Shown here in pieces: positions 11,019 through 29,404 of a DNA stretch of 32,000 nt. Position numbers and translations under genes: made by a program. The notes beneath the pieces are model-generated. The model was not told the DNA's origin, made no database searches, and saw nothing but the letters and a program-made list of their open reading frames with translations. Source of the stretch: Cylindrospermopsis raciborskii Cr2010 (GTDB lineage: Bacteria > Cyanobacteriota > Cyanobacteriia > Cyanobacteriales > Nostocaceae). The first letter of the stretch is position 1. Each line of letters starts with the position of its first letter. The stretch is taken from NCBI RefSeq assembly GCF_003367075.2, contig NZ_CP065936.1:2340001-2372000 (forward strand). The letters are read 5' to 3'.

Positions 11019-11906
11019 ATGAAAAGATGGCGGTTTTCCCTCAGTCAACTCTTAGATAATCATACCATTGCTGCTTGGACTTTTCTAGCTCCGGCGCTGG
11101 TATTATTAGGTTTGTTTATAATTTGGCCAATTGTCTATTTATTTTATCTGAGTTTCACTGCTGGTAGTTTTACGTCTAAGGGTATTTATTGGGTAGGTTT
11201 GAAGAACTACTGGCGTCTGTTATTAAATTCGGATTTTTGGCAGGTCTTATTTAACACTGCCTATTTCACTTTGGGTACGGTGATTCCCAGTTTAGTAATT
11301 CCCCTAGGGTTAGCAGTATTATTAAATCGTGTGCTACCTTGGCGGGGAATTTTACGTAGTTTCTATTTTTTACCTTCTATTATTTCTTTGGTTGCTGCTG
11401 GTTTAGGTTTTCGTTGGTTGTTTCAGAATACTGGTCCTGTAAATGGAATGTTGGAGTTTTTTGGGTTTCCTCCCATATCTTGGTTAGGTGATACTTTTTG
11501 GGCCATGCCAGTTTTAATTTTGTTTAGTATTTGGAAGCAAATTGGTTTCAACATGGTGGTTTTTTTAGCTGGTTTACAAGCCATTTCATCAACTCTTTAC
11601 GAAGCAGCAGAGCTGGACGGAGCAGGTGACTGGCAACAGTTTTGGCATATTACTTTGCCAGGACTAAGACCAACTTTAATTTTTGCTACTGTCACCACTT
11701 CTATTTTCACATTTCGCAGTTTTGAGCCTGTTTATGTAATTACTGGTGGCGGTCCTTTAAATTCTACTAATTTGTTGGTTTACTACACCTATCAAGAAGC
11801 TTTTGCCCAATTTGATTTCGGTTATGCTGCTGCAGTTGCTAGTGTTTTATTAGTAATAACCCTCCTACTAGTTTACTTTCAATTACAAACTTGGGGAAGG
11901 GGGTAA
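11019..11906 (+). CDS. Carbohydrate-type ABC transporter permease (MalF/UgpA-like), no partner genes adjacent
   Basis: It has six predicted TM segments and the EAA loop YEAAELDGAGDWQQFWHITLPGLRP. I chose the start at MKRWRFSL (11019), since the longer ORF from 10974 overlaps purN. Confidence 0.85.
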   Translation: MKRWRFSLSQLLDNHTIAAWTFLAPALVLLGLFIIWPIVYLFYLSFTAGSFTSKGIYWVGLKNYWRLLLNSDFWQVLFNTAYFTLGTVIPSLVIPLGLAVLLNRVLPWRGILRSFYFLPSIISLVAAGLGFRWLFQNTGPVNGMLEFFGFPPISWLGDTFWAMPVLILFSIWKQIGFNMVVFLAGLQAISSTLYEAAELDGAGDWQQFWHITLPGLRPTLIFATVTTSIFTFRSFEPVYVITGGGPLNSTNLLVYYTYQEAFAQFDFGYAAAVASVLLVITLLLVYFQLQTWGRG

Positions 11907-13025
11907 TTCTGCGGAAACATCTTCACTAGAGCTGTAAATTTCAATTCCTAATTTAGAAGCTATGGAATTGGCACTGGGGTGAACCATGGGTGAAATTACA
12001 ATCTTTCTCGTAGCTTGTCTTTGATGTTGTTGCTGATAAAAGTCTACTTTCCGGTAAAACGTGTACAAGTCAGCTTTGCTTACGGATGATTTGATCTCAC
12101 AAATGATTAGTTCCCCATTTCTGATAATCAAATCCAGTTCCACTTGGTCTGGTCTACCAAATACTATTCCTTGATCATCATACTCCACTATATTCAAAAC
12201 TTCTACGCCAAAAGACTCTTCTAAGATTGCTTTTAGACCATTACGAAACGAGGACTCAGAACATAGGCCCCACCGTGAACCGAGTCCGCTAATAGCAATG
12301 TCATGCTTACGACTCATGCGATCTATTGCTGCGATAACTCGGTCAAATTCCTGTCTGTTTTCATTCCATTTACCAGTTTGCTCATCCCACTTACGAGCTT
12401 GTTCCTGACGGTCAAGTTCCAGTTCCCGTTTGTTTTCATCCCACTTACGAGCTTGTTCCTGACGGTCAAGTTCCAGTTCCCGTTTGTTTTCATCCCACTT
12501 ACGAGCTTGTTCCTGACGGTCAAGTTCCATTTGGGTGATGACCTGGTCAAATTCTCGTCTGTTTTCATCCCATTTGCGAGCTTGTTCCTGACGGTCAAGT
12601 TCCATTTGGGCGAATACTCGGTCAAATTCCTGTTTGTTTTCATCCCATTTGCGAGCTTGTTCCTGACGGTCAAGTTCCATTTGGGCGAATACTCGGTCAA
12701 ATTCCTGTTTGTTTTCATCCCATTTGCGAGCTTGTTCCTGACGGTCAAGTTCCAGTTCCTGTTTGTTTTCATCCCACTTACGAGCTTGTTCCTGACGGTC
12801 AAGTTCCAGTTCCCGTTTGTTTTCATCCCACTTGCGAGACTGCTCTTCCCTATCCCGTCGTATTTCCCCCAATACTAAATCAAAGTGACTTTCCGTCTCC
12901 AAGCTTCCAGCAAAATAGCTGGAAATTGCCCTCACCAGCAAATCCCGCACTTCCACATCCTCTTGTATTAATGCAGGTAACTGTTGTTTTAGGAGCTGTT
13001 TAAAATCCATATCATTTATGGTCAT
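11883..13025 (-). CDS. DUF3782-like protein: helical N-terminus, expanded KWDEN tandem repeats, PD-(D/E)XK-like C-terminal domain
   Basis: 380 aa. Residues 58 to about 237 are repeats of DRQEQARKWDENK(R/Q)ELEL (18 aa) and DRQEQARKWDENKQEFDRVFAQMEL (25 aa). The C-terminus GRPDQVELDLIIRNGELIICEIKSSVSKADLYTFYRK fits a D...E.K restriction-endonuclease-like core. It resembles a paralogous family common in Nostocales, recalled from memory. Confidence 0.7.
   Translation of the reverse strand: MTINDMDFKQLLKQQLPALIQEDVEVRDLLVRAISSYFAGSLETESHFDLVLGEIRRDREEQSRKWDENKRELELDRQEQARKWDENKQELELDRQEQARKWDENKQEFDRVFAQMELDRQEQARKWDENKQEFDRVFAQMELDRQEQARKWDENRREFDQVITQMELDRQEQARKWDENKRELELDRQEQARKWDENKRELELDRQEQARKWDEQTGKWNENRQEFDRVIAAIDRMSRKHDIAISGLGSRWGLCSESSFRNGLKAILEESFGVEVLNIVEYDDQGIVFGRPDQVELDLIIRNGELIICEIKSSVSKADLYTFYRKVDFYQQQHQRQATRKIVISPMVHPSANSIASKLGIEIYSSSEDVSAELPPSPSL
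12315..12854 (-). repeat. In-frame tandem repeat array (54-nt and 75-nt units) inside the DUF3782-like gene
   Basis: Near-identical DNA units, for example catcccacttacgagcttgttcctgacggtcaagttccagttcccgtttgtttt (54 nt), are repeated. Three 75-nt variants sit in the middle. There are about 8 units in total. Confidence 0.9.
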
Positions 13026-13088: not shown

Positions 13089-13886
13089 CTAAAATTCTTT
13101 TCGAGAAAAGATGAAAATGGCGATCGCCAATAGCATCAAACTATAGGTTAATCCATAACCTGCATTACTGAATAAGGTGATAGTGTCAGGTATGGCTTCC
13201 CATCCATAAACGACATCATTTTTTAGATCCAGGCGGGACAAATCCGGCAGAGTTAGATATAAAATAGTAACAATATTTACAATAAACGGGTTTTCACCCG
13301 CACGTACCAGGTTGACTAGGTCGGTAGTAGTGTTACCTATTAAGTAGATAGCAATTGAAAGGAAAGTAGCTAGTAAGGTACTAGTGAATACTCCCAAAGT
13401 TATGGCAACGGTGGTGATTAAACTTAACTGTAAAAATAAGAATATCACCGCTAAAATGATTGTATATGGATTGTAGGTAATTTTCTGAAATTGCAAAAAT
13501 CCTAGGTAAATGATTGTCATACATGTCAGAAGTAAGAGCAATACCCCACATAAACCTAAGTATTTACTGATAATCAATTGACCACGGCTAATTGGTTTAG
13601 CAAGAATGGTCAGGATTGTCCTTTTTTCTATTTCCTGATTCATCGTGCTAGTACCAATAAATACTGCTACAATCAAACCGATAATGTTCATTATTCCCAA
13701 ACCCGCATCCAAAAAGATTTTGTCTTGGGTTGCTGGTGCAAATTGAAAAATCACTTGGTTAGCAGGGATAAGAATAACTGCGTAAAAACCTAGGATATAT
13801 AGAAGGCGATCTCTCACTACTTGTTGGAGTAGACTTTTGGCTATAACAAGGGTTGTAATAATGTTCATCTTGGGGATAGTTGTCAC
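13089..13886 (-). CDS. fraE: ABC-2-type permease-like membrane protein, FraE-like
   Basis: 265 aa and polytopic. It is third in a minus-strand triplet of 181, 336 and 265 aa. This mirrors the Anabaena PCC 7120 fraC-fraD-fraE operon (about 179, 343 and 263 aa, with fraE permease-like). Confidence 0.6.
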   Translation of the reverse strand: MTTIPKMNIITTLVIAKSLLQQVVRDRLLYILGFYAVILIPANQVIFQFAPATQDKIFLDAGLGIMNIIGLIVAVFIGTSTMNQEIEKRTILTILAKPISRGQLIISKYLGLCGVLLLLLTCMTIIYLGFLQFQKITYNPYTIILAVIFLFLQLSLITTVAITLGVFTSTLLATFLSIAIYLIGNTTTDLVNLVRAGENPFIVNIVTILYLTLPDLSRLDLKNDVVYGWEAIPDTITLFSNAGYGLTYSLMLLAIAIFIFSRKEF

Positions 13887-13929
13887 CTGTTAATTGATGA
13901 TAATTCTGAAGTACATGGGAATGTTTTGC

Positions 13930-14940
13930 CTACTGTTGTGCTGGTGGCGAACCTCTAAAAAATTTCGTTTTGCGATCGCATTTAATTTTTGCCTTCACAT
14001 TTTTATTATCGGTGGTGTACTCGGAAGCAATTGGTTCAATGTAACAAGATTTGCGTAAATAAAACCCCTTTTTACTATCAGTCGGTCCTTGCCAAATACT
14101 GAGAAGATCTAATCGGTAACCTGATTTGATATTAACCACACGAGGTTCGATTTTCCATAGTCCCTTCTCTTCAAATTCTCGCAGGTTTTTATTAATCATT
14201 ATTTTTCCTAAGTTACCCACTTGTTGATTAGCCTCCAATAGCCACCTTTCTACTTCTGACCAAGGTCTATTAGTGATTTGCTGTAGAATTAGTGGTTCAA
14301 TTCTATTTAAAATTACATTCCCCGGTTCTGGTTTGCTTGCTTTTGGTTCAAATTTAATTACAAAATTGCTGCGTTGAAAACTCTGTGCAGATAAACTGGG
14401 ATATTCTTTTAACCATTTATCTGTGACAAAGTTAAATTGCAACCAGCAACTAATTAACATTGACCAACTTAGCAGCAAAATGATTTTTTGTCTGACTTCC
14501 AACTTAGGGAGAGTTGCTTTTGGCGATATGCCATCCCCCGTAAAAAACTGTGGTAATGCTGTAATTATGGCAGCAATTGTGGGCCATAAAACTATGGTTC
14601 TGACCGTGATTGCGTTTTCTCCATGTCCAAAGGCAAATACACTAAATATAAATCCTGTCAACAAAGCACCCACAGGCATAAAAGTTCCTGGGACTCTTAC
14701 GGGAGAATCTGTTGTATACCAAGCGGTTCCGGTGAATAAAAATATCCAACCCGTAAAAGCAATAATATCTTTGATTATACCGGTGGCTAGATATGAAATT
14801 CCCCAAGAGAAAATACTTAGATATATAAACGTCTGCCAAGAAAAAGATCTGGGGGGCATTAATAGTTTCTGAATGCCTAAAAACAGATCTTTAATAAATG
14901 TGAATAACTGGATGATTTCTTTCAATAATGGAAAGTTCAT
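13930..14940 (-). CDS. fraD: Septal junction / filament integrity protein FraD-like
   Basis: 336 aa. The N-terminal part has multiple TM helices and the C-terminal half is soluble. Its position and size match fraD between fraC and fraE. Confidence 0.6.
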   Translation of the reverse strand: MNFPLLKEIIQLFTFIKDLFLGIQKLLMPPRSFSWQTFIYLSIFSWGISYLATGIIKDIIAFTGWIFLFTGTAWYTTDSPVRVPGTFMPVGALLTGFIFSVFAFGHGENAITVRTIVLWPTIAAIITALPQFFTGDGISPKATLPKLEVRQKIILLLSWSMLISCWLQFNFVTDKWLKEYPSLSAQSFQRSNFVIKFEPKASKPEPGNVILNRIEPLILQQITNRPWSEVERWLLEANQQVGNLGKIMINKNLREFEEKGLWKIEPRVVNIKSGYRLDLLSIWQGPTDSKKGFYLRKSCYIEPIASEYTTDNKNVKAKIKCDRKTKFFRGSPPAQQ

Positions 14941-14968
14941 AATTTTTACCTAGGGAGAGTGGTAGATT

Positions 14969-15514
14969 TTAACTTCTTTTAAGAAAGTCCCGTGCTAAAA
15001 TAAGTAGGCTAATGGCGGTATAGCTGATTGTATTAGCTATGAGGATGGTCGTAATCAGGTTATTATTTTGCATTTTCAGCTTTTGTTTCGCCAGACTCTT
15101 TTCTCTTTGGGTCATTTCTGCCAAGTTTAACTGATTCCTACCCTCACGCAAAATAATCATTAGTATTTTTAAAAACAGGGTCTCAATTAGAAAAGTCCCC
15201 AGGAAAATCACAAACCCTATGAGAAACAGATTAGTTTTGAGATTACCTTGAAAAGTGTTAAAGAATACATAGCTCATCAGTTCCGATTTCACCTTGACGG
15301 GTAGGATTGGTTCCAGCAAGAAAAAAATGTTCCAACCCAGAACGGTAGAGAGGACGTTGATCGCCATAGCGTAAAAAACACTGGTCTTTTTGTCAAATTT
15401 GATTGCTCTGTGGAGAATATAGGACTCTATCGGAATAGCAACCAGCAAAAATAAAGTTTGAAAGACAATAGTACCCACCGGGAGGACTTTGGGTAGTGAT
15501 AATTCATCAAGCAT
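14969..15514 (-). CDS. fraC: Filament integrity protein FraC-like
   Basis: 181 aa. It is a Phe-rich membrane protein (15 Phe) with 3-4 TM helices, and it is first in the fraCDE-like triplet. FraC of Anabaena is described as a 179-aa Phe-rich membrane protein. Confidence 0.65.
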   Translation of the reverse strand: MLDELSLPKVLPVGTIVFQTLFLLVAIPIESYILHRAIKFDKKTSVFYAMAINVLSTVLGWNIFFLLEPILPVKVKSELMSYVFFNTFQGNLKTNLFLIGFVIFLGTFLIETLFLKILMIILREGRNQLNLAEMTQREKSLAKQKLKMQNNNLITTILIANTISYTAISLLILARDFLKRS

Positions 15515-20929: not shown

Positions 20930-22843
20930 TTATTTTCTTGAGGTTATTAATCTGAGGAAATAGATTATTAGTCCTACAAATCCTAACTCATTCCACAAAA
21001 ACTTTCTTAGTTCTCTATGGTTCCTAGGTTTGCGAAATTCCATCAAATACGCATCAAGACTGCGAACGGCAATCGCCTCTTGTCTGTTTCTATCCAGTAA
21101 AGTTTGTACCGTTGTGTACTGATCTAGGAGCTGTCTTAAATTTTCTAACCCCCCTGTTTCCAACAAAATTTGACTAATTTGATTATGAACGGCGATCGCC
21201 TCTTGTTTGCTTCTATCTAATGAATTTCGTACCATTCTGCATTGATCCAGCAGCTGTCTTAAATTTTCTGTCCCTCCTGTTTCCAACAAAATTTGATTAA
21301 CTTGACCTAGGTTGGACTCAATACTTTTATTTGACTGATTAATATATCTATAGTGGGTTGCAATTTCCGTGGAAATCCTCCCGTAGGTTTGAACCAGATT
21401 TTCCAACCTGGTTTCGGATTCGCTAATATAGGTTTGTAATTGATTATATTGACTAGCTACTTCCTGTGATCTAGTTTGTGCTACTGCTTCGATAGATTGT
21501 AAGTTTTGTTCAATATGTTGTATGTTTCGGTAAGTAAGTTGGGAAGAACTCTCGGCTTGTTGGATATTAGTCAAGACTTGTTGAATATCTGCCCATAAGT
21601 TAGGACTAATACCCAGTTGACTAATTTGATTATAAACGGCGATCGCCTCTTGTTTAATTCTGTCCAACGAAGTTTGTATATTTCTAGATTGATCCAGCAA
21701 CTGTCTTAAATTTTCTGTCCCTCCTGTTTCCAACAAAATTTGACTAATTTGATTATGAACGGTGATCGCCCCTTGTTTGCTTATATCTAATGAAGTCTGT
21801 ACACTTCTAGATTGATCCAGCAGCTGTCTTAAATTTTCTATTCCTCCTGTTTCCAACAAAATTTGATTAATTTGACCTAGGTTGGACTCAATATTCTCAT
21901 TGGCTTGGTTAATATATCCATAATTAGTTTCAATTTCCGTGGAAATCCTCCCGTAGGTTTGAATCAAATTTTCCAACCTGGTTTCCGATTGGCTAATATA
22001 GGTTTGTAATTGATTATATTGACTAGCTAGTTCCTGTGATCTACTTTGTACTACTGCTTCAATAGATTGTAAGTTTTGTTGAATATTTTGTATATCCTGA
22101 TAGGTGAGTTGGGAAGAACTATCTAGTTGTTGAATCTTACTTAAAAATTGTTGGATATTTGCCCAGAAATCAGAGGTAATACCTAGTTCAATAATTTGAT
22201 TTTGAAATGCGATCGCCTCCTGTCTAGTTCTATCCAGTGAAGTCTGTACCGTTGTAGACTGGTCTAGGAGCTGTCTTAAATTTTCTACACCCCCAGTCTC
22301 TAAAAGAATTTGACTAATTTGATCATGAAGAGCGATCGCCTCTTGTTTGGTTCCATCCAATGAAGTTTGTGCCGTTATGGACTGATCTAGGAGCTGTCTT
22401 AAATTTTCCATTCCTCCTATATCTAACAGAATTTGATTAATTTGACCTAAGTTAGATTCAATATTTTTATTTGCTTGACTGACTTCTATATATTTAGTTT
22501 CAATTTGTGTATAAATCTTATGATATTCTTCAAGCTCTTTGATACTAGCCAGGACTTGTTGAATATTCGTCCATAAATCAGGGGTAACACCTAGTTCACT
22601 AATTTGATTTGGCAAGTCCCTTAAGCTCTGTAGTTCTGAATTAATCTTTTCAGCGTGATCATAATTAGCAAGACTACGGGTTTCAATCTCTTCCAGGTCA
22701 CTTTTCACTACTTGTGCATTTTGTAAAATATCTCTTGCATCTTTTAGGACATCTCTTGCATCTTCAATTGCCTCATTTATCACGTCACATAATTTTTTAA
22801 GATCTCTAGCAACATCTAAATCTGTTTTATGTTGAACATTCAT
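20930..22843 (-). CDS. Tail-anchored, highly repetitive coiled-coil protein of unknown function
   Basis: 637 aa, rich in Q, L, E, I and N. It has heptad-like repeats and a single C-terminal hydrophobic segment (FLWNELGFVGLIIYFLRLI). I recognise no family. Confidence 0.7.
   Translation of the reverse strand: MNVQHKTDLDVARDLKKLCDVINEAIEDARDVLKDARDILQNAQVVKSDLEEIETRSLANYDHAEKINSELQSLRDLPNQISELGVTPDLWTNIQQVLASIKELEEYHKIYTQIETKYIEVSQANKNIESNLGQINQILLDIGGMENLRQLLDQSITAQTSLDGTKQEAIALHDQISQILLETGGVENLRQLLDQSTTVQTSLDRTRQEAIAFQNQIIELGITSDFWANIQQFLSKIQQLDSSSQLTYQDIQNIQQNLQSIEAVVQSRSQELASQYNQLQTYISQSETRLENLIQTYGRISTEIETNYGYINQANENIESNLGQINQILLETGGIENLRQLLDQSRSVQTSLDISKQGAITVHNQISQILLETGGTENLRQLLDQSRNIQTSLDRIKQEAIAVYNQISQLGISPNLWADIQQVLTNIQQAESSSQLTYRNIQHIEQNLQSIEAVAQTRSQEVASQYNQLQTYISESETRLENLVQTYGRISTEIATHYRYINQSNKSIESNLGQVNQILLETGGTENLRQLLDQCRMVRNSLDRSKQEAIAVHNQISQILLETGGLENLRQLLDQYTTVQTLLDRNRQEAIAVRSLDAYLMEFRKPRNHRELRKFLWNELGFVGLIIYFLRLITSRK
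21050..22597 (-). repeat. Nested in-frame repeats: 570-nt (190-aa) super-units each containing two 123-nt (41-aa) sub-units
   Basis: The marker (g/t/a)gc(g/a)atcgcc occurs at 21068, 21191, 21638, 21761, 22208 and 22331. This gives spacings of exactly 123 and 570 nt. Units are 21050-21619 and 21620-22189 (both full) and 22190-22597 (lacking 54 aa). Confidence 0.9.
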
Positions 22844-23152
22844 CTATTTTTATATTCCTATAGTGAGAACAAGTTTCAGCTGATAGATAGAGTATATCAG
22901 CAATTAGGATAGAATGTTTTTAAAAACGGGCGATGTCTAAGCACTCCCCAGATCCCATTTCTATAATCTTTCCCACTCACCGTGCGATCGCCAATAACGC
23001 TGGTTAGGGGCTAATCATCTGCACGTTATCGGCATAATTGATACCTTATATGCTATTGTGATGTTGGTTAAATCATTCTGTCGTTTAGCAACGCCTAGAT
23101 AAGGCTTAATGTGCTGGAGCCAAAAGGCACAGGATATGGAGTTGGCAGGATT

Positions 23153-23236
23153 TTATATTTTCTCCGGGTCAATACCAAGGGAACGTAGATAAGCAGCTAG
23201 TTTTTCTTTTTGTTGGCGTTCCTGGGGTTTCGTCCC
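23153..23236 (-). pseudogene. Short gene remnant (C-terminal tail ...QERQQKEKLAAYLRSLGIDPEKI*)
   Basis: A 27-codon open frame with no start codon ends at a stop at 23153-23155. It is cut off upstream by a stop inside a hairpin repeat module. The tail resembles C-termini I recall from cyanobacterial Uma2/DUF820-type proteins. This is weak evidence. Confidence 0.25.
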
Positions 23237-23248
23237 TCAACCCCAACC
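23224..23248. repeat. Variant hairpin module (ggggtt-tcgtccctc-aacccc)
   Basis: It has the same loop family (tcgt(t/c)cctc) and the same stem logic as the gttgggtt/aacccaac module. It sits at the 5' break of the gene remnant. Confidence 0.6.
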
Positions 23249-23299
23249 AATGATGCTTAAACTACGCGTCACAGGTGGTTACCGTGATGTGTTTGATGG

Positions 23300-25726
23300 T
23301 CAATTCGGGAGATTATTGCGATAAATCTGATATTCATCGAAAGTCATAAAGTTTCCTGCTTGGTAATCACTTTCTGAGATACTTTCGATCGCCATCTGAC
23401 ATAAATTAGACACTGGGGACAAATTATGGAAATTATTGTTTGATATTAGACTGCTAAATGGATAGTCTGCGGGAAACTGCTGACCTAAATTCATTCTTAC
23501 ACGAGCTGCTTCGTAGGGTAAAAACCTATCCTCAAGATCTTGAGCTATGGCATTAATGATACGGTTATAGGCATTAGCCAGGGTTCTCTTTAATTCATTT
23601 GCTTGAGTGATAGCATCCCAAAATCGGCGGGAACTTCTCAGAAGTAAACACTTTATGGCAATCCTATTATAAAAATCGGTAATATTGTTATCAGCTTGCT
23701 TCAATTCCCTGTCCAAAAAATCTGGGTTACACTGGGATAATCTTGCTATTAACTTAGATTCAATTTCATTGATTCTATCATCTGCAGCTGTGCGAAGAAC
23801 GGTATACATATCCCAATGTATTAGGGGGGGATCGGAATTTACAGCATCATTAATTAACCGGTCAACCGCATCCACATCTTCTGAGAAATCTTCAGCACCA
23901 GATAACTCGGAAATCCAACTAATCAAAAAGTTACCATCCATGGAGGTATACCAATCACAGTTGGTAAATTTATCTCTTCCTCCTAACCTTTCCAATTCCC
24001 CAGGGGTTGCTATGATTAACAGTCTAGATTTTGCCCGGGTGGCGATGGTATACCAAATATTAGCCTCTTCAAAGGAGGGTTTACCTTCACCTTGAAATAT
24101 AAAAAAACCAATGCAAGCATCAAATTCTCTTCCCTTGGCTTCCTCAGCTTTCAGATAACTAATTCCAGGTAAGCAGTTTGCCACAAGCTCATGATTATGT
24201 TTATAAATTAAATGAACTTGGCGCGATAACTTACGCAGTAAATATCTGTCATCTTGCTGGGTTGAAGCACTAATGTTGTCACTTAAATGCTGGAGAAAAT
24301 TTTTAGCATCATCCATGGAGTTAACTTCTAATATGGCAACTTTTTCACCTATTTCAAAAGCATGTTCTGGATTGGAAGGATCAGGAAGGTGTCTACCACC
24401 AGCATTGGCGATCTTGGCAAAATTGTGCAATATTTCAGCAAATTCCAGTATTTTTTGGGTGTTGCGGTAGTTGTATTTAAGATGAATTCGTTGGTTAAGA
24501 TGTAGACTTCCCCAATCAAAATCAACCGGTTTAATCCGTTGATTCAGATCACCTAGTAACCAAATTATAGGTGGTAAAAATTGGTTCCGCCACCTTGTGA
24601 GCATTTGTATAACGTCATCTAATTCTCTAAGTAAATAATCCTGTGCTTCATCAAAAATGAACAGGGTCTGTCTTGTTATCTGTTCGGGGGTCATTATATC
24701 TGTGAGATTGAGTTCTTGAGTTGTTTTTCTCAAAGCGTCTAACCAAACTAGTTTGTTGTTGAGATGTTTATTGTATCCTTCCCTACCTTGCTTAATTTTT
24801 ATTAATTTTTTAACTCTCAGTTCGTTGTTTCTATAAATGGGATTTTTTACGTTTATACTATCTCTTTCATAAACAAAGCTTTTGTATAGTGTCAAGTCGT
24901 GGTCTGACAGATACTCATTATTACTAATAACATGGATCCTTCTGGCCTCTTTAGTAAGAGCATCTAATTCTTCTTCATTGGTGGCAACCTGATTATGTAG
25001 TTCAGAATTTACACTTCTATGCCATTCTTGAAAAGTACCAACAAAGAAAAATTGATCATCTTTTAGATCAAGTTCTTTAATACAGGTAAATTGTTTCACT
25101 TCCTCACAGAGAGCAGGTGGTAGAATTAGGATGATGTTCCAACCTTGTTGTGGTTGTGTGTATTGGTTACAAGCGAATAGTGCAGCACAAACTGTTTTAC
25201 CCGTACCTGGTGCACTCTGCAACAACAAGCTGGGAATTATTTCGTCCCTCCTTTCCCTCAAATTTTTAGTCAATGTGTTTAGGTGACTATAAATTGTTCT
25301 ATGTTGTTCTGGGGTGAGAATTGGTGAATAAAGATAGCCACCATAAACAAACTGATACCAGGATGAGTAATTTTGATCGGATACCTTATATGTGGGAATA
25401 CTCTCTACTCTGTCTTCTGGTAGATCAAGAATATCTGACCAAGCTAGGGGATTATCTAGGTTTCGATTCCTGTTGATTTGTTGATAAACCTTGTCTCTTC
25501 TTCCCACCTTAACAACCAGAAAATCATTATTTTCATCTCGTCTCCAGATTACTCTGATGTCATTTTGCCTGGTACGACATAAGTTTCCATAACCTTCTAG
25601 TTGTTTACAATCACCAGGAAGATCTTCACTAAAACCCTTAATTATGTTCCTAACAGTTTCTAGATCTTCATGGTATAGCTTCTGCATTTCCTTGAATGCT
25701 CTCTTGACAATTTTTACTTGTGCCAT
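23300..25726 (-). CDS. Fusion protein: N-terminal RelE/ParE-like toxin fold + SF1 (UvrD-like) helicase/ATPase core + uncharacterised helical C-terminal domain
   Basis: The N-terminus MAQVKIVKRAFKEMQKL...CKQLEGYGNLCRTRQNDIRVIWRRDENNDFLVVKVGRRDKVYQ aligns by eye with E. coli RelE (ALKEWRKL...KLRGMPDCYKIKLRSSGYRLVY...VVFVISVGKRERSEVY). Helicase motifs are Walker A SAPGTGKT, motif II FIFDEAQDY, motif III LLGDLNQRI, motif IV YNYRNTQ, motif V EEAKGREFD and motif VI TIATRAKSRLLII. I chose the start at 25726. The ORF-track start at 25792 adds a hydrophobic 22-aa extension that overlaps the divergent gene. Confidence 0.75.
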   Translation of the reverse strand: MAQVKIVKRAFKEMQKLYHEDLETVRNIIKGFSEDLPGDCKQLEGYGNLCRTRQNDIRVIWRRDENNDFLVVKVGRRDKVYQQINRNRNLDNPLAWSDILDLPEDRVESIPTYKVSDQNYSSWYQFVYGGYLYSPILTPEQHRTIYSHLNTLTKNLRERRDEIIPSLLLQSAPGTGKTVCAALFACNQYTQPQQGWNIILILPPALCEEVKQFTCIKELDLKDDQFFFVGTFQEWHRSVNSELHNQVATNEEELDALTKEARRIHVISNNEYLSDHDLTLYKSFVYERDSINVKNPIYRNNELRVKKLIKIKQGREGYNKHLNNKLVWLDALRKTTQELNLTDIMTPEQITRQTLFIFDEAQDYLLRELDDVIQMLTRWRNQFLPPIIWLLGDLNQRIKPVDFDWGSLHLNQRIHLKYNYRNTQKILEFAEILHNFAKIANAGGRHLPDPSNPEHAFEIGEKVAILEVNSMDDAKNFLQHLSDNISASTQQDDRYLLRKLSRQVHLIYKHNHELVANCLPGISYLKAEEAKGREFDACIGFFIFQGEGKPSFEEANIWYTIATRAKSRLLIIATPGELERLGGRDKFTNCDWYTSMDGNFLISWISELSGAEDFSEDVDAVDRLINDAVNSDPPLIHWDMYTVLRTAADDRINEIESKLIARLSQCNPDFLDRELKQADNNITDFYNRIAIKCLLLRSSRRFWDAITQANELKRTLANAYNRIINAIAQDLEDRFLPYEAARVRMNLGQQFPADYPFSSLISNNNFHNLSPVSNLCQMAIESISESDYQAGNFMTFDEYQIYRNNLPN

Positions 25727-25772
25727 TAGTTTATTGTATATTGTATGGAGGACAATATATACACTAACATAA

Positions 25773-26669
25773 ATGACTAATGTTTTATTCAATGCACCAG
25801 TGAAAGTCTACCGAATGTCAACCCCTGAACATCAGTGTCCTTGGGGACTACGGGCAATTAAATTGCTGACTGAGCATGGCATTCCCTTTGAGGATATTCT
25901 GCTGCGTTCACAGATAGAAGTTGATGCTTTTAAGGCACAATACGGAGTTTCTACCACCCCCCAAATCTTTATTGGAGATCGGCGCTTAGGTGGATATTCA
26001 GATCTTGCCAAGTATTTTTCCGTGCAAGCAATCACTCCTGAGTACTCCTACACACCGGTGATTGCTCTATTTTCCACTGCAGGATTAGTAGCACTTTCTA
26101 CCTCCTTGGGACTAACTGGATTTATGGGTATTTCCCTTTCCATGCTGGCCTCCTTGAAATTGATGGATATTGATAGCTTTACCACCAGCTTCAAGAAGTA
26201 TGACCTAATTACCCAGCGGTTCCAGCACTATAGCAAACTCTATCCTTTTGCGGAGCTGGCCATTGGTTTGGGATTTCTATCGAATATAGCGCCACTATTT
26301 ACCGGAGTTGGCTCATTAATATTGGGTATGAGCGGTGCTGTGGCTGTTTTTAAGGCGGTGTATATAGACAAAATGGCATTGAACTGTGCCTGTATTGGTG
26401 GAAATTCCAAAGCACCTTTGGGAATCGTCAGCTTTGCAGAAAATAGTATTATGACGATTATGGGTGCTATGCTGATTTTCTCATCGCTCAGTCCCCAGTC
26501 TGTAAAATCTATAGGTTCTCCCAACAATGTTTCACAAGAAATTGGTTATCAACAAGTACAAAAATTAGGTCCAATTTATCCCGCTACCTCATTGACGGGG
26601 AAACGGTCGATTAACTGCATCGCCCTTCCAGCGTTTTTCCGCAAAGACTCGCTCACAAAGGGAGCATGA
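25773..26669 (+). CDS. Glutaredoxin-like domain fused to MauE/DoxX-type redox-associated membrane domain
   Basis: The N-terminus is VKVYRMSTPEHQCPWGLRAIKLL...TTPQIFIGDRRLGGYSDL, a Grx fold with a CPWG motif. The membrane part is LKLMDIDSFTTSFKKYDL...PFAELAIGLGFL...ALNCACIGGNSKAPLG, which is MauE-like. The 3' end overlaps the convergent helicase gene by 94 nt. Confidence 0.7.
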   Translation: MTNVLFNAPVKVYRMSTPEHQCPWGLRAIKLLTEHGIPFEDILLRSQIEVDAFKAQYGVSTTPQIFIGDRRLGGYSDLAKYFSVQAITPEYSYTPVIALFSTAGLVALSTSLGLTGFMGISLSMLASLKLMDIDSFTTSFKKYDLITQRFQHYSKLYPFAELAIGLGFLSNIAPLFTGVGSLILGMSGAVAVFKAVYIDKMALNCACIGGNSKAPLGIVSFAENSIMTIMGAMLIFSSLSPQSVKSIGSPNNVSQEIGYQQVQKLGPIYPATSLTGKRSINCIALPAFFRKDSLTKGA

Positions 26670-29404
26670 GGAATTTGTGATAACAAATCAAGAGTTCGCC
26701 TTAATAACCTAACCACATCACCCTCATCTAAAGTGGTCATGGCACAAAGTTGTAACCATTTGGTTCCCAGGGCCCATTGTTCCACAATAGCAATCAGTTC
26801 AAATTCTAACCATATAGGTAGAGCAACATGATAGCGATGTTGAACTTGAAATAACTTACGTCTAATATTACGCAACTTTGACAGGGCACTCCCTACCTCA
26901 TTACTCAAATTAAAACTTACCCTACTATCAGGTCGTGGTGTTTCCGTGACTAGTGCTGCTACTGCTGCTGCTAGGTGATGGGGATCTAAATTATCTAGTT
27001 CACCACTATCTATAGCTAATCCTAACCATAATTCATTCTCACCCCTAATGGTGGACGCCATTTGTCCCAAGTGTGTGGGTGCCAAATTGTCTAGGGCGTC
27101 AAAATGTTGTAGAATCCTAATCAAGTTCAGAAACTGCTCCCAATGTTCCTCAGAGTTTCGTTTTACCTTCTTCTCTAAACCCTCCAGATATGATTTTAAT
27201 TCCACAAACTCGGCTTTCTGCTTAAATATATGCCCAATTTTCCCCGACTGATGTACGGAATTCTTTTCCATTTGTGACTGTATAGACACTACCCGATTGA
27301 GTTGATTTGCTAACTCCGGTGTCATGTACAAAAACTCTGTCGTATCTGGAATAAAATCCGCTATTTGTGCTGTCTGTGCATCTCCTCGCCAAGAATAACC
27401 CTTTTTTAATCCTAGCTCTATAGGGGGTATAATACTTTCTGGCACTTCTACCCTAGATATGTGAGCATGTACTTCAATTACATCTGAGTTTGTAGCTGAA
27501 TACCAACGATTATTCTTGCCCAAGCAAATAATGAAGGAACTTGGACCAGTTTCTGGCACTTTACTATATAATATGGCTGTCATTGGTAGGGTAGCTGTCG
27601 TGTTTTTATCTCTCAAGCTCAAAAGGGTACCTTTGACGGCAAATTCTAGCATCATATACAATTCAGACTCTCTTTCTTCCCTTAGTTGCTCCTGTAAGGT
27701 TCTAAATATATGTAGCTCTACCTTTAAAATCTGTTTCAACTTTTCATAAAGGGTAATTTCATTTTCGTCTATGGCACTTAATTCTTCCTCAATTTTTGCC
27801 AGTTCTGCCTTAATTTCCTCAATTTCGTCGTATTCTGGCTTTAAATATAAAGTCGCCATGTACTGACCAAAACTGCGCTCTATTAGTTCCTTAGCTTGTT
27901 CTAATGTATGGGTTTGCAACAGGTTTAACACCATGCCATAACTGGGGGTAAACTGACTCACTAGGGGATCCGCAGGGGATGTGGCTAAATATGCAGCTTC
28001 TCTTGCTCCCTCAAAGGGTGTTTGTAGGGTTACTACGTGACCCTGTTTATCCATTCCTCTTCTACCTGCACGACCGGACATCTGTAAAAACTCAGAAGCC
28101 TTCAATAGTCGATGTCCATTATCAGTTCGCTTGGAAAGAGTTGATATTACTGTGGTTCGCGCAGGCATGTTAATACCTGCCGCTAAAGTCTCTGTGGCAA
28201 ATACAACTTTAATTAGACCCTGCTGAAATAGCTCTTCAACTAGTAACTTCCAAGCTGGTAATATGCCTGCATGGTGTGCTGCAATACCTTTATACAGGGG
28301 AGCAATTTGTCCAGAACGTCCAGCTTCCGGATTGCGGGTTAAAAATTCATCAATTTGTACTCGTAATATTTGGGATTCTTCATTATTGACCAGCCATAGG
28401 TCGCTAACTTCTGAAACGGCTTTATCACAACCACGACGGCTGAAAATAAAGAAAATTGCTGGTAACATATCCCTCTCGAATAATTGATTGAGGGTATAAA
28501 CTATAGTTGGCGGTTCGGGACGATTACCATAACCCCTCTCCCCAATCCCCTTCTTACCCCGTTTGATTAACCTGGAATTAATTTTGGTCTTACTCTCATT
28601 GAGTAGGGGAAATAAACCTTTGGGGTTGCAGAAGTGAAACTCCAGGGGAACGGGACGAAAATCAGAGTAAATTAAATCTGTCGGACCATGAACCCGATTT
28701 AACCAATCCGTTAGTTGGTCGCTATTTTCCACAGTAGCAGAAAGAGCAACCAACTGGACCTCCTGGGGACAGTAAATTATGGATTCCTCCCAAACCGTAC
28801 CTCGCTGCTGATCATTCATGTAGTGGCATTCATCTAAGACCACAGCCTCAACATTGGTCAAAGATACCCCAATTTGTCCTATAGGGGTACCATAAAGCAT
28901 ATTACGGAAAATTTCCGTGGTCATCACAATAATCGGTGCTTCCCGGTTTACAGAAGCATCTCCCGTGAGCAGTCCCACCTGCTCAAAACCAAATTTTTCT
29001 CGAAAGTCCCGTAACTTTTGATTGGATAAGGCTTTTAGGGGAGTAGTGTAAAATACCCTTTTACCACGAGATAAAGCCCGATAAATGGCATATTCACCAA
29101 TTAAGGTCTTACCAGATCCTGTCGGAGCACAGACAACTACTGATTTTCCATCATTTAAAGATGCGATCGCATCTAGTTGAAATTGATCGAGTTCAAAGGG
29201 AAAAATTGACTGTAGGTCAATTTCTAAAGGGGATGGAGTGTGATTGTTCACTAGAACCTCCACTCTGAGGAGGATGATGCTATCACAAGACCTGGAAGTA
29301 ACATCTGGGCGAATTGATTCGCCACCTGAAAATTCATAACTGTAACCATCCTGAATTTGCGGATTGTTGAACAATATTTGTGGGTGACTGTGTGCCCCCT
29401 GCAC
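26576..29404 (-). CDS. Ski2-like superfamily II DEAD/DEAH-box RNA helicase (HelY-type, with C-terminal DSHCT-like region)
   Basis: 942 aa. Motifs present are CAPTGSGKT, LDECHYM, LSATV and QMSGRAGRRG, with a long helical arch and C-terminal region. The start is uncertain, and a downstream GTG is possible. Confidence 0.85.
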   Translation of the reverse strand: MQGAHSHPQILFNNPQIQDGYSYEFSGGESIRPDVTSRSCDSIILLRVEVLVNNHTPSPLEIDLQSIFPFELDQFQLDAIASLNDGKSVVVCAPTGSGKTLIGEYAIYRALSRGKRVFYTTPLKALSNQKLRDFREKFGFEQVGLLTGDASVNREAPIIVMTTEIFRNMLYGTPIGQIGVSLTNVEAVVLDECHYMNDQQRGTVWEESIIYCPQEVQLVALSATVENSDQLTDWLNRVHGPTDLIYSDFRPVPLEFHFCNPKGLFPLLNESKTKINSRLIKRGKKGIGERGYGNRPEPPTIVYTLNQLFERDMLPAIFFIFSRRGCDKAVSEVSDLWLVNNEESQILRVQIDEFLTRNPEAGRSGQIAPLYKGIAAHHAGILPAWKLLVEELFQQGLIKVVFATETLAAGINMPARTTVISTLSKRTDNGHRLLKASEFLQMSGRAGRRGMDKQGHVVTLQTPFEGAREAAYLATSPADPLVSQFTPSYGMVLNLLQTHTLEQAKELIERSFGQYMATLYLKPEYDEIEEIKAELAKIEEELSAIDENEITLYEKLKQILKVELHIFRTLQEQLREERESELYMMLEFAVKGTLLSLRDKNTTATLPMTAILYSKVPETGPSSFIICLGKNNRWYSATNSDVIEVHAHISRVEVPESIIPPIELGLKKGYSWRGDAQTAQIADFIPDTTEFLYMTPELANQLNRVVSIQSQMEKNSVHQSGKIGHIFKQKAEFVELKSYLEGLEKKVKRNSEEHWEQFLNLIRILQHFDALDNLAPTHLGQMASTIRGENELWLGLAIDSGELDNLDPHHLAAAVAALVTETPRPDSRVSFNLSNEVGSALSKLRNIRRKLFQVQHRYHVALPIWLEFELIAIVEQWALGTKWLQLCAMTTLDEGDVVRLLRRTLDLLSQIPHAPFVSESLRKNAGRAMQLIDRFPVNEVAG

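Follow-up and report, generated by a model that had tools for sequence, protein, structure and literature searches.

A 32,000-nucleotide stretch of the Cylindrospermopsis raciborskii Cr2010 genome (contig NZ_CP065936.1, positions 2,340,001 to 2,372,000; hereafter the window) carries a conserved two-gene cassette. The first cistron, gene 1, encodes an 808-residue protein in which a RelE-fold domain is followed by a complete superfamily 1 (SF1) ATPase core and a helical C-terminal region. The second cistron encodes a coiled-coil protein of the Slr7083 family. We tentatively read this cassette as an ATPase-controlled RelE effector module of the conflict type, acting in defense or in an abortive-infection-like manner, and not as a housekeeping helicase.

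Domain architecture of the gene 1 protein

The open reading frame (ORF) listing of the window confirmed a minus-strand frame at 23300..25792. The ATG at 25726 (MAQVKIV), which is internal to this frame, is the likely start codon, since 49/49 aligned homologues begin there and an 808-residue product is annotated in NCBI assemblies of the same species. With this start, gene 1 spans 23300..25726 on the minus strand. The original prediction, made from the letters of the DNA, had proposed a RelE/ParE-like toxin fold, a full SF1 helicase, and an unassigned C-terminal part. This three-part layout is real, and the strings quoted in its favor were all found in the translation (CRTRQNDIRVIW, GRRDKVY, GTGKT, DEAQD, GDLNQ, NYRNT, KGREFD, and TRAKSRL). 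In single-sequence searches with the gene 1 protein, the Pfam families DEAD, UvrD_C, UvrD_C_2, ResIII, AAA_19, and ParE_toxin were all sub-threshold, no NCBIfam family reached threshold, and the PDB returned no match. An Rfam scan of the whole window gave no match either.

The RelE-fold domain comprises residues 1–85 (25472..25726, minus strand), as delineated by conservation, a profile search of the PDB, AlphaFold2 modeling, and Foldseek. The profile, built from residues 1–100 of 30 sequences, was run against the PDB, and the top of the resulting list consists of RelE-family chains only. These chains span values from 7.5e-5 to 1e-2 at the head of the list, with archaeal aRelE (1wmi) at 7.5e-5, Escherichia coli RelE at 8e-4, and Rv2866 at 1.5e-3. 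The AlphaFold2 model of the domain, with a predicted local distance difference test (pLDDT) score of 89 and a predicted template modeling score of 0.82, adopts the RelE topology. It comprises a strand at residues 4–6, helices at 8–15 and 19–33, and strands at 40–42, 50–54, 57–63, and 69–76. The best eight Foldseek matches of this model in the PDB are all RelE proteins, with target-normalized TM scores of 0.67–0.80. ParE proteins rank below RelE in the same list, and Cami1, a CARF-RelE protein, appears at ranks 31–32. Accordingly, the RelE resemblance that had been claimed for the first ~85 residues is far beyond chance, and the combination of model and structure search identifies the N-terminus as a RelE fold. 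The Pfam model ParE_toxin (PF05016) scores 14.8 bits on the window protein against a cut-off of 23, and it matches 9 of the 30 family members at E <= 1, with a best E of 2.6e-4.

Nine positions of the domain are invariant among the 30 N-terminal sequences: L43, G45, R51, T52, R58, W61, G75, R77, and Y81. In the hidden Markov model (HMM) alignment, R51, R58, R77, and Y81 correspond to K52, R61, R81, and Y87 of E. coli RelE, the residues that contact and cleave mRNA in the ribosomal A site. Across 49 full-length sequences, R58, R77, and Y81 again show no variation, and R51 is retained in at least 90%. The R...R...RxxxY pattern is retained even in plasmid-borne relatives of 28–32% identity and in the sister subfamilies described below. 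Given the fold, the RelE-only top matches, and the invariant equivalents of the catalytic residues, the domain is, as judged from alignment and model, a true RelE and more than RelE-like, and selection for catalysis appears to act on it. The JGI pipeline labels many relatives "mRNA-degrading endonuclease RelE", so automated annotation already recognizes this domain. It is followed by a flexible, poorly conserved linker of variable length (residues ~86–125; 25352..25471, minus strand), which is marked by insertions and deletions in alignment columns ~112–190. A dip in pLDDT at residues 81–90 coincides with its beginning.

The SF1 ATPase core, of the UvrD/HelD-like type, occupies residues ~126–580 (23987..25351, minus strand) and is defined by invariant columns and by a profile match to HelD. 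The complete UvrD-like motif set noted in the original prediction is present: motifs Q, I, II, III, IV, V, and VI occur in order and are invariant across 49 homologues of 36–57% identity. They comprise the Q-motif LTxxQ (T138 and Q141), Walker A GTGKT (residues 174–178; 25193..25207), Walker B DEAQD (residues 359–363; 24638..24652; D359, E360, Q362, and D363 invariant), motif III GDLNQ (G392, D393, N395, and Q396), motif IV NYRN (N419–N422), motif V KGREF (K531–F535), and motif VI TRxxSRLL (T563, R564, and R568–L570), all encoded on the minus strand. An insertion of ~180 residues separates Walker A from Walker B. In a search of the family profile against the PDB, the best solved relative is Bacillus subtilis HelD/helicase IV (6wvk, 6.6e-10), which matches from Walker B to motif VI, and the Walker A region shows merely weak similarity to UPF1. 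HelD is not a conventional helicase; it is an RNA polymerase-recycling factor and not a repair helicase. HelD also resembles the gene 1 product in having a large insertion at the corresponding position between the two Walker motifs. However, the gene 1 product lacks the N-terminal domain that HelD inserts into the secondary channel of RNA polymerase, and HelD possesses neither the RelE domain nor the C-terminal helical domain, so that the similarity is confined to the motor. The window protein lies below all helicase cut-offs in Pfam, whereas a remote relative from Petrotoga passes that of PF00580 at 48.9 bits.

The remaining conserved part is a family-specific, all-helical C-terminal domain (residues ~581–786; 23369..23986, minus strand), which is supported by conservation and by the AlphaFold2 model. 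Residues 575–808 are predicted to be entirely helical with a pLDDT of 82, and W604, D639, Y641, E656, L694, W703, A705, I727, E739, and R742 are invariant. The ~200 helical residues at this end, left unassigned in the original prediction, match no known family. The region has no Pfam or PDB sequence match, and a Foldseek search of the PDB returned TPR-like matches that are insignificant (E > 0.4). The Petrotoga relative shows weak Pfam TPR matches at the same position, and the domain is possibly TPR-like.

The coiled-coil partner and the spacer that precedes it

Gene 1 is not a self-contained unit, contrary to what the original prediction implied. A neighbor survey was conducted on 73 fetched loci, in which all flanking ORFs were clustered, and 69 of these loci have sequence downstream of gene 1. 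In ~65 of the 69, a coiled-coil gene lies directly downstream on the same strand, and it is the sole neighbor that recurs across lineages. The gap between the two genes is often −4 or 0 bp, with frequent overlap at ATGA, and in other genera the genes overlap or stand 0–50 bp apart. The sister subfamilies likewise carry a coiled-coil gene downstream of gene 1. The partners are 140–650 residues long and rich in coiled coil, and they share the N-terminal motif (S/T)D-x-E-x-A-x-x-L-E-x-L-x-x-x-I-x-x-G-I-x-x-A. Membership is recognized by the reduced form of this motif, (S/T)D-x-E/D-x-x-x-L-x-x-L-x-x-x-I-x-x-G, together with a long coiled coil and the downstream position. About two thirds of the partners end in a C-terminal hydrophobic tail anchor. 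The partner is thus the obvious candidate for a regulator or scaffold that would act in trans.

In the window, the partner gene occupies 20930..22843 on the minus strand and encodes a 637-residue protein, which is assigned to the Slr7083 family by motif, synteny, and hhalign. It bears the N-terminal family motif KTDLDVARDLKKLCDVINEAIEDA and the C-terminal hydrophobic tail anchor ELGFVGLIIYFLRLITSRK. A simple HMM built on 45 residues at the N-terminus of the partner failed to detect Slr7083, whereas an hhalign profile comparison of window-type partners with Slr7083-type N-termini gave a probability of 95.6% (E 1.3e-8). Matches of the partner to DndD, PbeC, JetC, LmuB, and SMC were judged compositional, since the partner has no ATPase head. 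The gene is also internally repetitive, with 123-bp tandem duplications at 21064-21305, 21617-21875, and 22192-22445 and with internal repeats of ~870 bp at 82–88% identity. One metagenome scaffold (L079) is interrupted here by runs of N.

Slr7083 of Synechocystis PCC 6803 is a homologue of the partner that shares its N-terminal motif and occupies the same position, downstream of slr7081/slr7082. It differs in having no C-terminal transmembrane anchor, in being plasmid-borne, and in following an upstream gene interrupted by a stop codon. Slr7083 self-interacts, forms filament-like nets in vitro, and localizes to the cell periphery (PMC7002697). Its deletion in a motile strain reduced twitching motility, disturbed cytokinesis, and caused abnormal thylakoid partitioning; the gene is weakly transcribed, and its overexpression in the motile strain was deleterious and not achieved (PMC7002697). 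Since gene 1 carries a stop codon in PCC 6803, these phenotypes probably come from a background in which the RelE-helicase is interrupted. Independently, Slr7083 has been listed as the type III CRISPR accessory cluster C3a168 (PMC6546367), for which PADLOC holds the model PDLC01082. A proteogenomics paper lists Slr7080-7082 merely as uncharacterized P-loop proteins. The neighboring gene played no part in the argument by which Slr7083 was assigned its published role in motility and at the cell periphery, and none of the papers on Slr7083/C3a168 and Slr7080-7082 ties Slr7083 to a RelE-helicase gene.

The original prediction further stated that no antitoxin gene is nearby. This statement is literally true, as no ORF of at least 40 residues and antitoxin size flanks gene 1 in the window, and none does so in homologues from other genera. 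It misses both the downstream partner and a deleted toxin-antitoxin cassette, which was revealed by comparing eight assemblies that carry an identical DUF29 protein at the same locus. In three of these sister strains (L074, L076, and L078), the order is an 820-residue helicase gene, 5 nt, a 91-residue ParE_toxin gene (PF05016, 1.8e-8), a 79-residue gene, and the partner. The window lacks ~700 bp of this arrangement, and BLASTN shows that the deletion joins two homologous 3' ends (compare L074:6700-7918). The tail of the 820-residue variant and the C-terminus of the 79-residue protein are 68% identical over 25 residues (E 2e-9), and the last 22 residues of the window protein are identical to the end of the 79-residue protein. 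These 22 codons and the stop (DYQAGNFMTFDEYQIYRNNLPN; 23300..23368, minus strand) therefore form a strain-specific tail derived from the 3' end of the 79-residue gene. Other family members end before this point, and the tail lies outside the conserved family. The 456-bp spacer between gene 1 and the partner (22844..23299, minus strand) corresponds to sequence downstream of the 79-residue gene in the sister strains and contains no ORF of at least 40 residues.

Judging from the sister-strain gene order, the BLASTN junction, and the identity of the tail, a canonical RelE/ParE toxin-antitoxin cassette was evidently once inserted between gene 1 and the partner and has been largely deleted here, leaving a scar at 22844..23374. 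The spacer and the foreign 22-residue tail are explained by this former insertion. The small toxin-antitoxin genes of the sister strains are a separate inserted cassette, and the scar is a strain-level feature that is no part of the family design. Assignment of gene 1 itself to a type II toxin-antitoxin module such as RelBE or ParDE was rejected, because no small cognate antitoxin gene is adjacent in the window or in other genera.

Distribution and genomic setting

Among 5.8 billion proteins, 139 relatives were found, and all of those with organism names are cyanobacterial. They are full-length proteins of 750–850 residues with 35–57% identity, apart from one variant at 96%, and identity among Nostocales members is 35–47%. 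An exhaustive HMMER search of 1.84 billion representative proteins yielded 78 clusters at E <= 1e-30. This search also uncovered sister subfamilies of ~875 residues with the same three-part architecture, as well as remote relatives outside the cyanobacteria, such as a Petrotoga protein annotated as RelE/TPR and UvrD-helicase. Only 73 loci were present among 185,579 species genomes, and their location varies by lineage. The family is thus patchy and restricted to a small minority of cyanobacterial species, and, in agreement with the original prediction, gene 1 does not encode a housekeeping helicase that occupies a constant locus across Nostocales. Gene 1 has been inactivated repeatedly: it is split in Synechocystis 6803, in Picosynechococcus 7002, and at locus L068, and it carries a 1-nt frameshift at L075. 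The small numbers of clusters and loci and this recurrent inactivation indicate that the family behaves as an accessory one, which we count in favor of a conflict-type role. The Petrotoga relative (L088/L089, 6001..8526; Thermotogota) combines RelE, UvrD, and TPR parts without a coiled-coil partner; the ISL3 transposase, the NERD-helicase gene, and the second UvrD-like gene beside it give the region a mobile or defense-like appearance.

A tblastn search of plasmids located the cassette in four places. On pSYSA of Synechocystis PCC 6803 (L094, 76204..79775), gene 1 corresponds to slr7081 and slr7082, divided by an in-frame stop, and the partner is slr7083. On pSYLA of Synechocystis 6714, gene 1 is intact and encodes 795 residues. 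It is split on pAQ6 of Picosynechococcus 7002 and intact on a plasmid of Picosynechococcus 7003. The cassette adjoins type III-B cmr genes on pSYSA and pSYLA, and BREX and HEPN/NTase genes are also nearby on pSYLA. The surroundings of the cassette on pAQ6 include genes for VapBC, HigB, WYL, and large helicases, and a RAMP gene within 10 kb. The neighboring slr7080 was considered as a third component and rejected, since it encodes a Csx3-AAA protein that is not conserved with the cassette.

The cassette is chromosomal in filamentous strains. Gene families that are expanded in cyanobacteria are often its direct neighbors: Uma2 precedes it in Microcoleaceae and DUF4058 in the Calothrix group, and DUF29 follows downstream of it in the window. 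These neighbors may mark insertion-prone spots. The window itself represents an ordinary cyanobacterial chromosome, as it contains 18 copies of the HIP1 palindrome GCGATCGC against 0.07 expected; the partner gene has four of them and the spacer one, and the 2.4-kb helicase ORF is free of them. Beside gene 1, a glutaredoxin-MauE gene (25773..26669, plus strand), which is split in one strain (L078), converges with a gene for a Ski2-like DEAD/DSHCT helicase (26576..29404, minus strand), and their 3' ends overlap by 94 bp. The start of the Ski2-like helicase varies by assembly, giving 891 or 942 residues. Further away, a DUF3782 gene with a PD-(D/E)XK (PDDEXK_10) domain (11883..13025, minus strand; 380 residues) is split, truncated, or replaced in the sister strains (121+92+197, 470, 300+86, or 144 residues), a local point of variation in a region that is otherwise collinear. 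A filament-integrity cluster consisting of fraC, a DUF5357 (fraD-like) gene, and an ABC-2 membrane (fraE-like) gene occupies 13089..15514 on the minus strand, 8 kb from the cassette, and its synteny is kept in all sister strains.

Proposed function and its alternatives

The most fitting description of the cassette is that of an effector toxin joined to a nucleoside triphosphatase sensor and accompanied by an unusual filament-forming, usually tail-anchored coiled-coil partner. In the ATPase-controlled effector module that we tentatively favor, the RelE domain would serve as the effector by entering the A site of translating ribosomes, cleaving mRNA, and arresting translation. This activity would be restrained or directed by the ATPase and the C-terminal domain, possibly in cis as in the CapRel-like scheme of the original prediction, in answer to a cue from nucleic acid or protein. 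The partner would bind the gene 1 product through its conserved N-terminal helix and would provide a peripheral coiled-coil lattice in which the enzyme is scaffolded or restrained. We infer the RNase activity, its regulation by the ATPase, the interaction between partner and enzyme, and the role in defense from the conserved residues, the gene pairing, and the contexts described above. We regard it as unlikely, if worth stating, that the cassette is a translation-targeting system of a new type, in which the coiled-coil lattice lies under the cytoplasmic membrane and tethers a RelE-bearing ATP-driven motor, from which a trigger, possibly phage entry, a membrane cue, or a nucleic-acid cue, would send RelE to ribosomes so that mRNA is cut.

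The RelE proteins of RelBE systems (E. coli RelE, archaeal aRelE, and Mycobacterium tuberculosis RelE1/RelE2) have the same fold and topology and the aligned basic and aromatic residues. In gene 1, however, this fold makes up the N-terminal 10% of an 808-residue protein, has no RelB-type antitoxin, and stays below the Pfam threshold. The nearest precedents that join a RelE fold to a sensor or motor are Cami1 and CnuH of the CoCoNuT systems (PMC11090510). Cami1, a CARF-RelE accessory RNase of type III CRISPR, also joins RelE to a larger sensor that controls ribosome-dependent mRNA cleavage; its sensor is no ATPase but a CARF domain that binds cyclic oligoadenylate, and its RelE is C-terminal. 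CnuH of type II/III-A CoCoNuTs carries an "RNase toxin-like" domain of the RelE/colicin D fold N-terminal to an SF1 helicase, and these coiled-coil-rich systems are predicted to act on RNA or ribosomes (PMC11090510). In contrast to the cassette, CnuH is UPF1-like, includes an SmpB-like OB domain, and cooperates with McrB/McrC-type partners, features that have no counterpart here; the present helicase is HelD/UvrD-like, its RelE residues are conserved, and the coiled coil resides on a separate tail-anchored protein. Membership in CoCoNuT was rejected, as no gene for a CnuB/McrB GTPase or a CnuC/McrC nuclease lies beside gene 1. CapRel(SJ46), Nhi, type II Mokosh, and GajB of Gabija follow a common logic in which an effector is fused to a regulatory or sensing part, but their toxin folds are different, that of CapRel being a tRNA pyrophosphokinase of the RelA/SpoT type. 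The GajB and Nhi models show weak, helicase-level similarity to the family, and their defining partners, such as GajA, are absent. Gabija was rejected, since the window protein has no GajB match, its relatives give partial matches at E 1e-5 to 1e-12, and no GajA-like neighbor is present. Multidomain RelE/ParE toxins are a further near precedent, and a 2025 survey of them by Gerdes mentions no helicase fusion in its text or supplements.

Several observations weigh against a conflict-type role. The recurrent chromosomal neighbors are homoserine dehydrogenase, petH, phosphoribulokinase (prk), icd, prs, Uma2, and DUF4058, and the synteny of chromosomal cassettes is stable within families and differs between them. 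The setting in the window is similarly housekeeping, with a glutaredoxin-MauE fusion, DUF29, purD, a histidine kinase, and the fraC/D/E genes. The proposed enrichment in defense islands holds for plasmid members, which lie near cmr, BREX, and toxin-antitoxin genes, and fails for chromosomal ones, whose link to defense islands was rejected because their neighbors are housekeeping genes and the cyanobacterium-expanded Uma2 and DUF4058. As had been anticipated, no named defense system was matched: the PADLOC models gave no convincing match for gene 1 or its relatives, only weak partial similarity to the GajB/RTasHel helicases. No homologue was found in a phage collection or in IMG/VR. Reported slr7083 phenotypes concern motility and cytokinesis and do not include phage sensitivity (PMC7002697). 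Finally, an intact gene 1 occurs without an adjacent partner at loci L019 and L024 and in the Petrotoga relative, so that the partner is not universally required.

The chromosomal setting and the apparently vertical inheritance of synteny within families would suit a cellular surveillance role, which we consider rather unlikely and yet worth weighing. RelE would then target stalled or membrane-proximal ribosomes, the ATPase would remodel mRNA-ribosome or RNA polymerase-ribosome complexes, and the partner would position the enzyme at the periphery for quality control or localized translation control unrelated to defense. The closest solved relative, HelD, which recycles RNA polymerase and is no repair helicase, agrees with such a function, as do the tail-anchored or peripheral partner and the cellular phenotype of the slr7083 mutant in motility, cytokinesis, and thylakoid partitioning. 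However, the family is confined to a small minority of cyanobacterial species and repeatedly pseudogenized, its Nostocales identity of merely 35–47% is far below that of typical core proteins, and the unicellular members are plasmid-borne among defense genes. The tight pairing with frequent ATGA overlap could also reflect an addiction pair of reversed order, in which the RelE-helicase is the toxin and the downstream coiled-coil protein a stoichiometric antitoxin acting through its N-terminal helix. The amphipathic character of the conserved ~35-residue N-terminal stretch of the partner, the toxin-antitoxin-rich plasmids of the unicellular members, and the difficulty of slr7083 complementation and overexpression (PMC7002697) are in line with this arrangement. 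We nevertheless judge it distinctly unlikely, as the partner has no DNA-binding domain and, at 140–650 residues, is unlike known antitoxins, and as gene 1 stays intact beside no partner at the three loci named above. The slr7083 mutant is moreover viable, though gene 1 is probably interrupted in that strain.

It is improbable that the RelE fold is a non-catalytic adaptor binding RNA or ribosomes in a helicase devoted to repair, recombination, or plasmid biology. ParE-type members of the RelE/ParE fold are indeed no RNases, the RelE-like domain of CnuH shows no sequence conservation with active toxins (PMC11090510), and the Pfam ParE_toxin score is sub-threshold. Against this, the invariant residues are the exact equivalents of RelE K52, R61, R81, and Y87, and the best matches in both sequence and fold are RelE, not ParE. 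Least probable, to the point of being hardly tenable, is a type III CRISPR-Cas accessory module, a role put forward for the partner family, there called C3a168 (PMC6546367; PADLOC model PDLC01082). Admittedly, the cassette adjoins cmr genes on the two Synechocystis plasmids, pSYSA and pSYLA, and on pAQ6 a RAMP gene lies within 10 kb of it. Yet a tblastn search with Cmr1/6, Cmr3, Cmr4, Cas10, Cas1, and TIGR03985 proteins found no cas genes, either in the window or within 10 kb of any of the 73 genome loci, CARF and other domains that sense cyclic oligoadenylate are absent, and knock-outs of slr7080-slr7084 left CRISPR3 interference unaffected (PMC6546367). As a family trait, this role is largely refuted, with adjacency seen on Synechocystis plasmids only. 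The absence of cas genes and the unaffected interference also count against the conflict-type module that we favor.

The cassette amounts to a natural experiment on how toxins are controlled: a textbook ribosome-dependent toxin has a motor ATPase built into the same chain and, in place of an antitoxin, a filament-forming partner close to the membrane. If active, it would place toxin control under ATP hydrolysis and subcellular tethering and would extend effector-sensor fusions beyond CARF-RelE (Cami1) and CoCoNuT. It also links two unconnected descriptions of Slr7083, as a filament-forming motility protein and as the CRISPR cluster C3a168, and both studies may need re-reading in light of the neighboring RelE-helicase gene. 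The intact plasmid alleles of Synechocystis 6714 (D082_RS19185/RS16280) and Picosynechococcus 7003 (AWQ21_RS16590/RS15145) offer tractable hosts. If the RelE-bearing motor is indeed tethered by the coiled-coil lattice, Slr7083, hitherto taken for a cytoskeletal or motility protein and for a CRISPR accessory, would scaffold a machine for immunity or surveillance built around a RelE-helicase. In its logic, that machine would be the bacterial counterpart of the eukaryotic mRNA surveillance that pairs UPF1 with an endonuclease.

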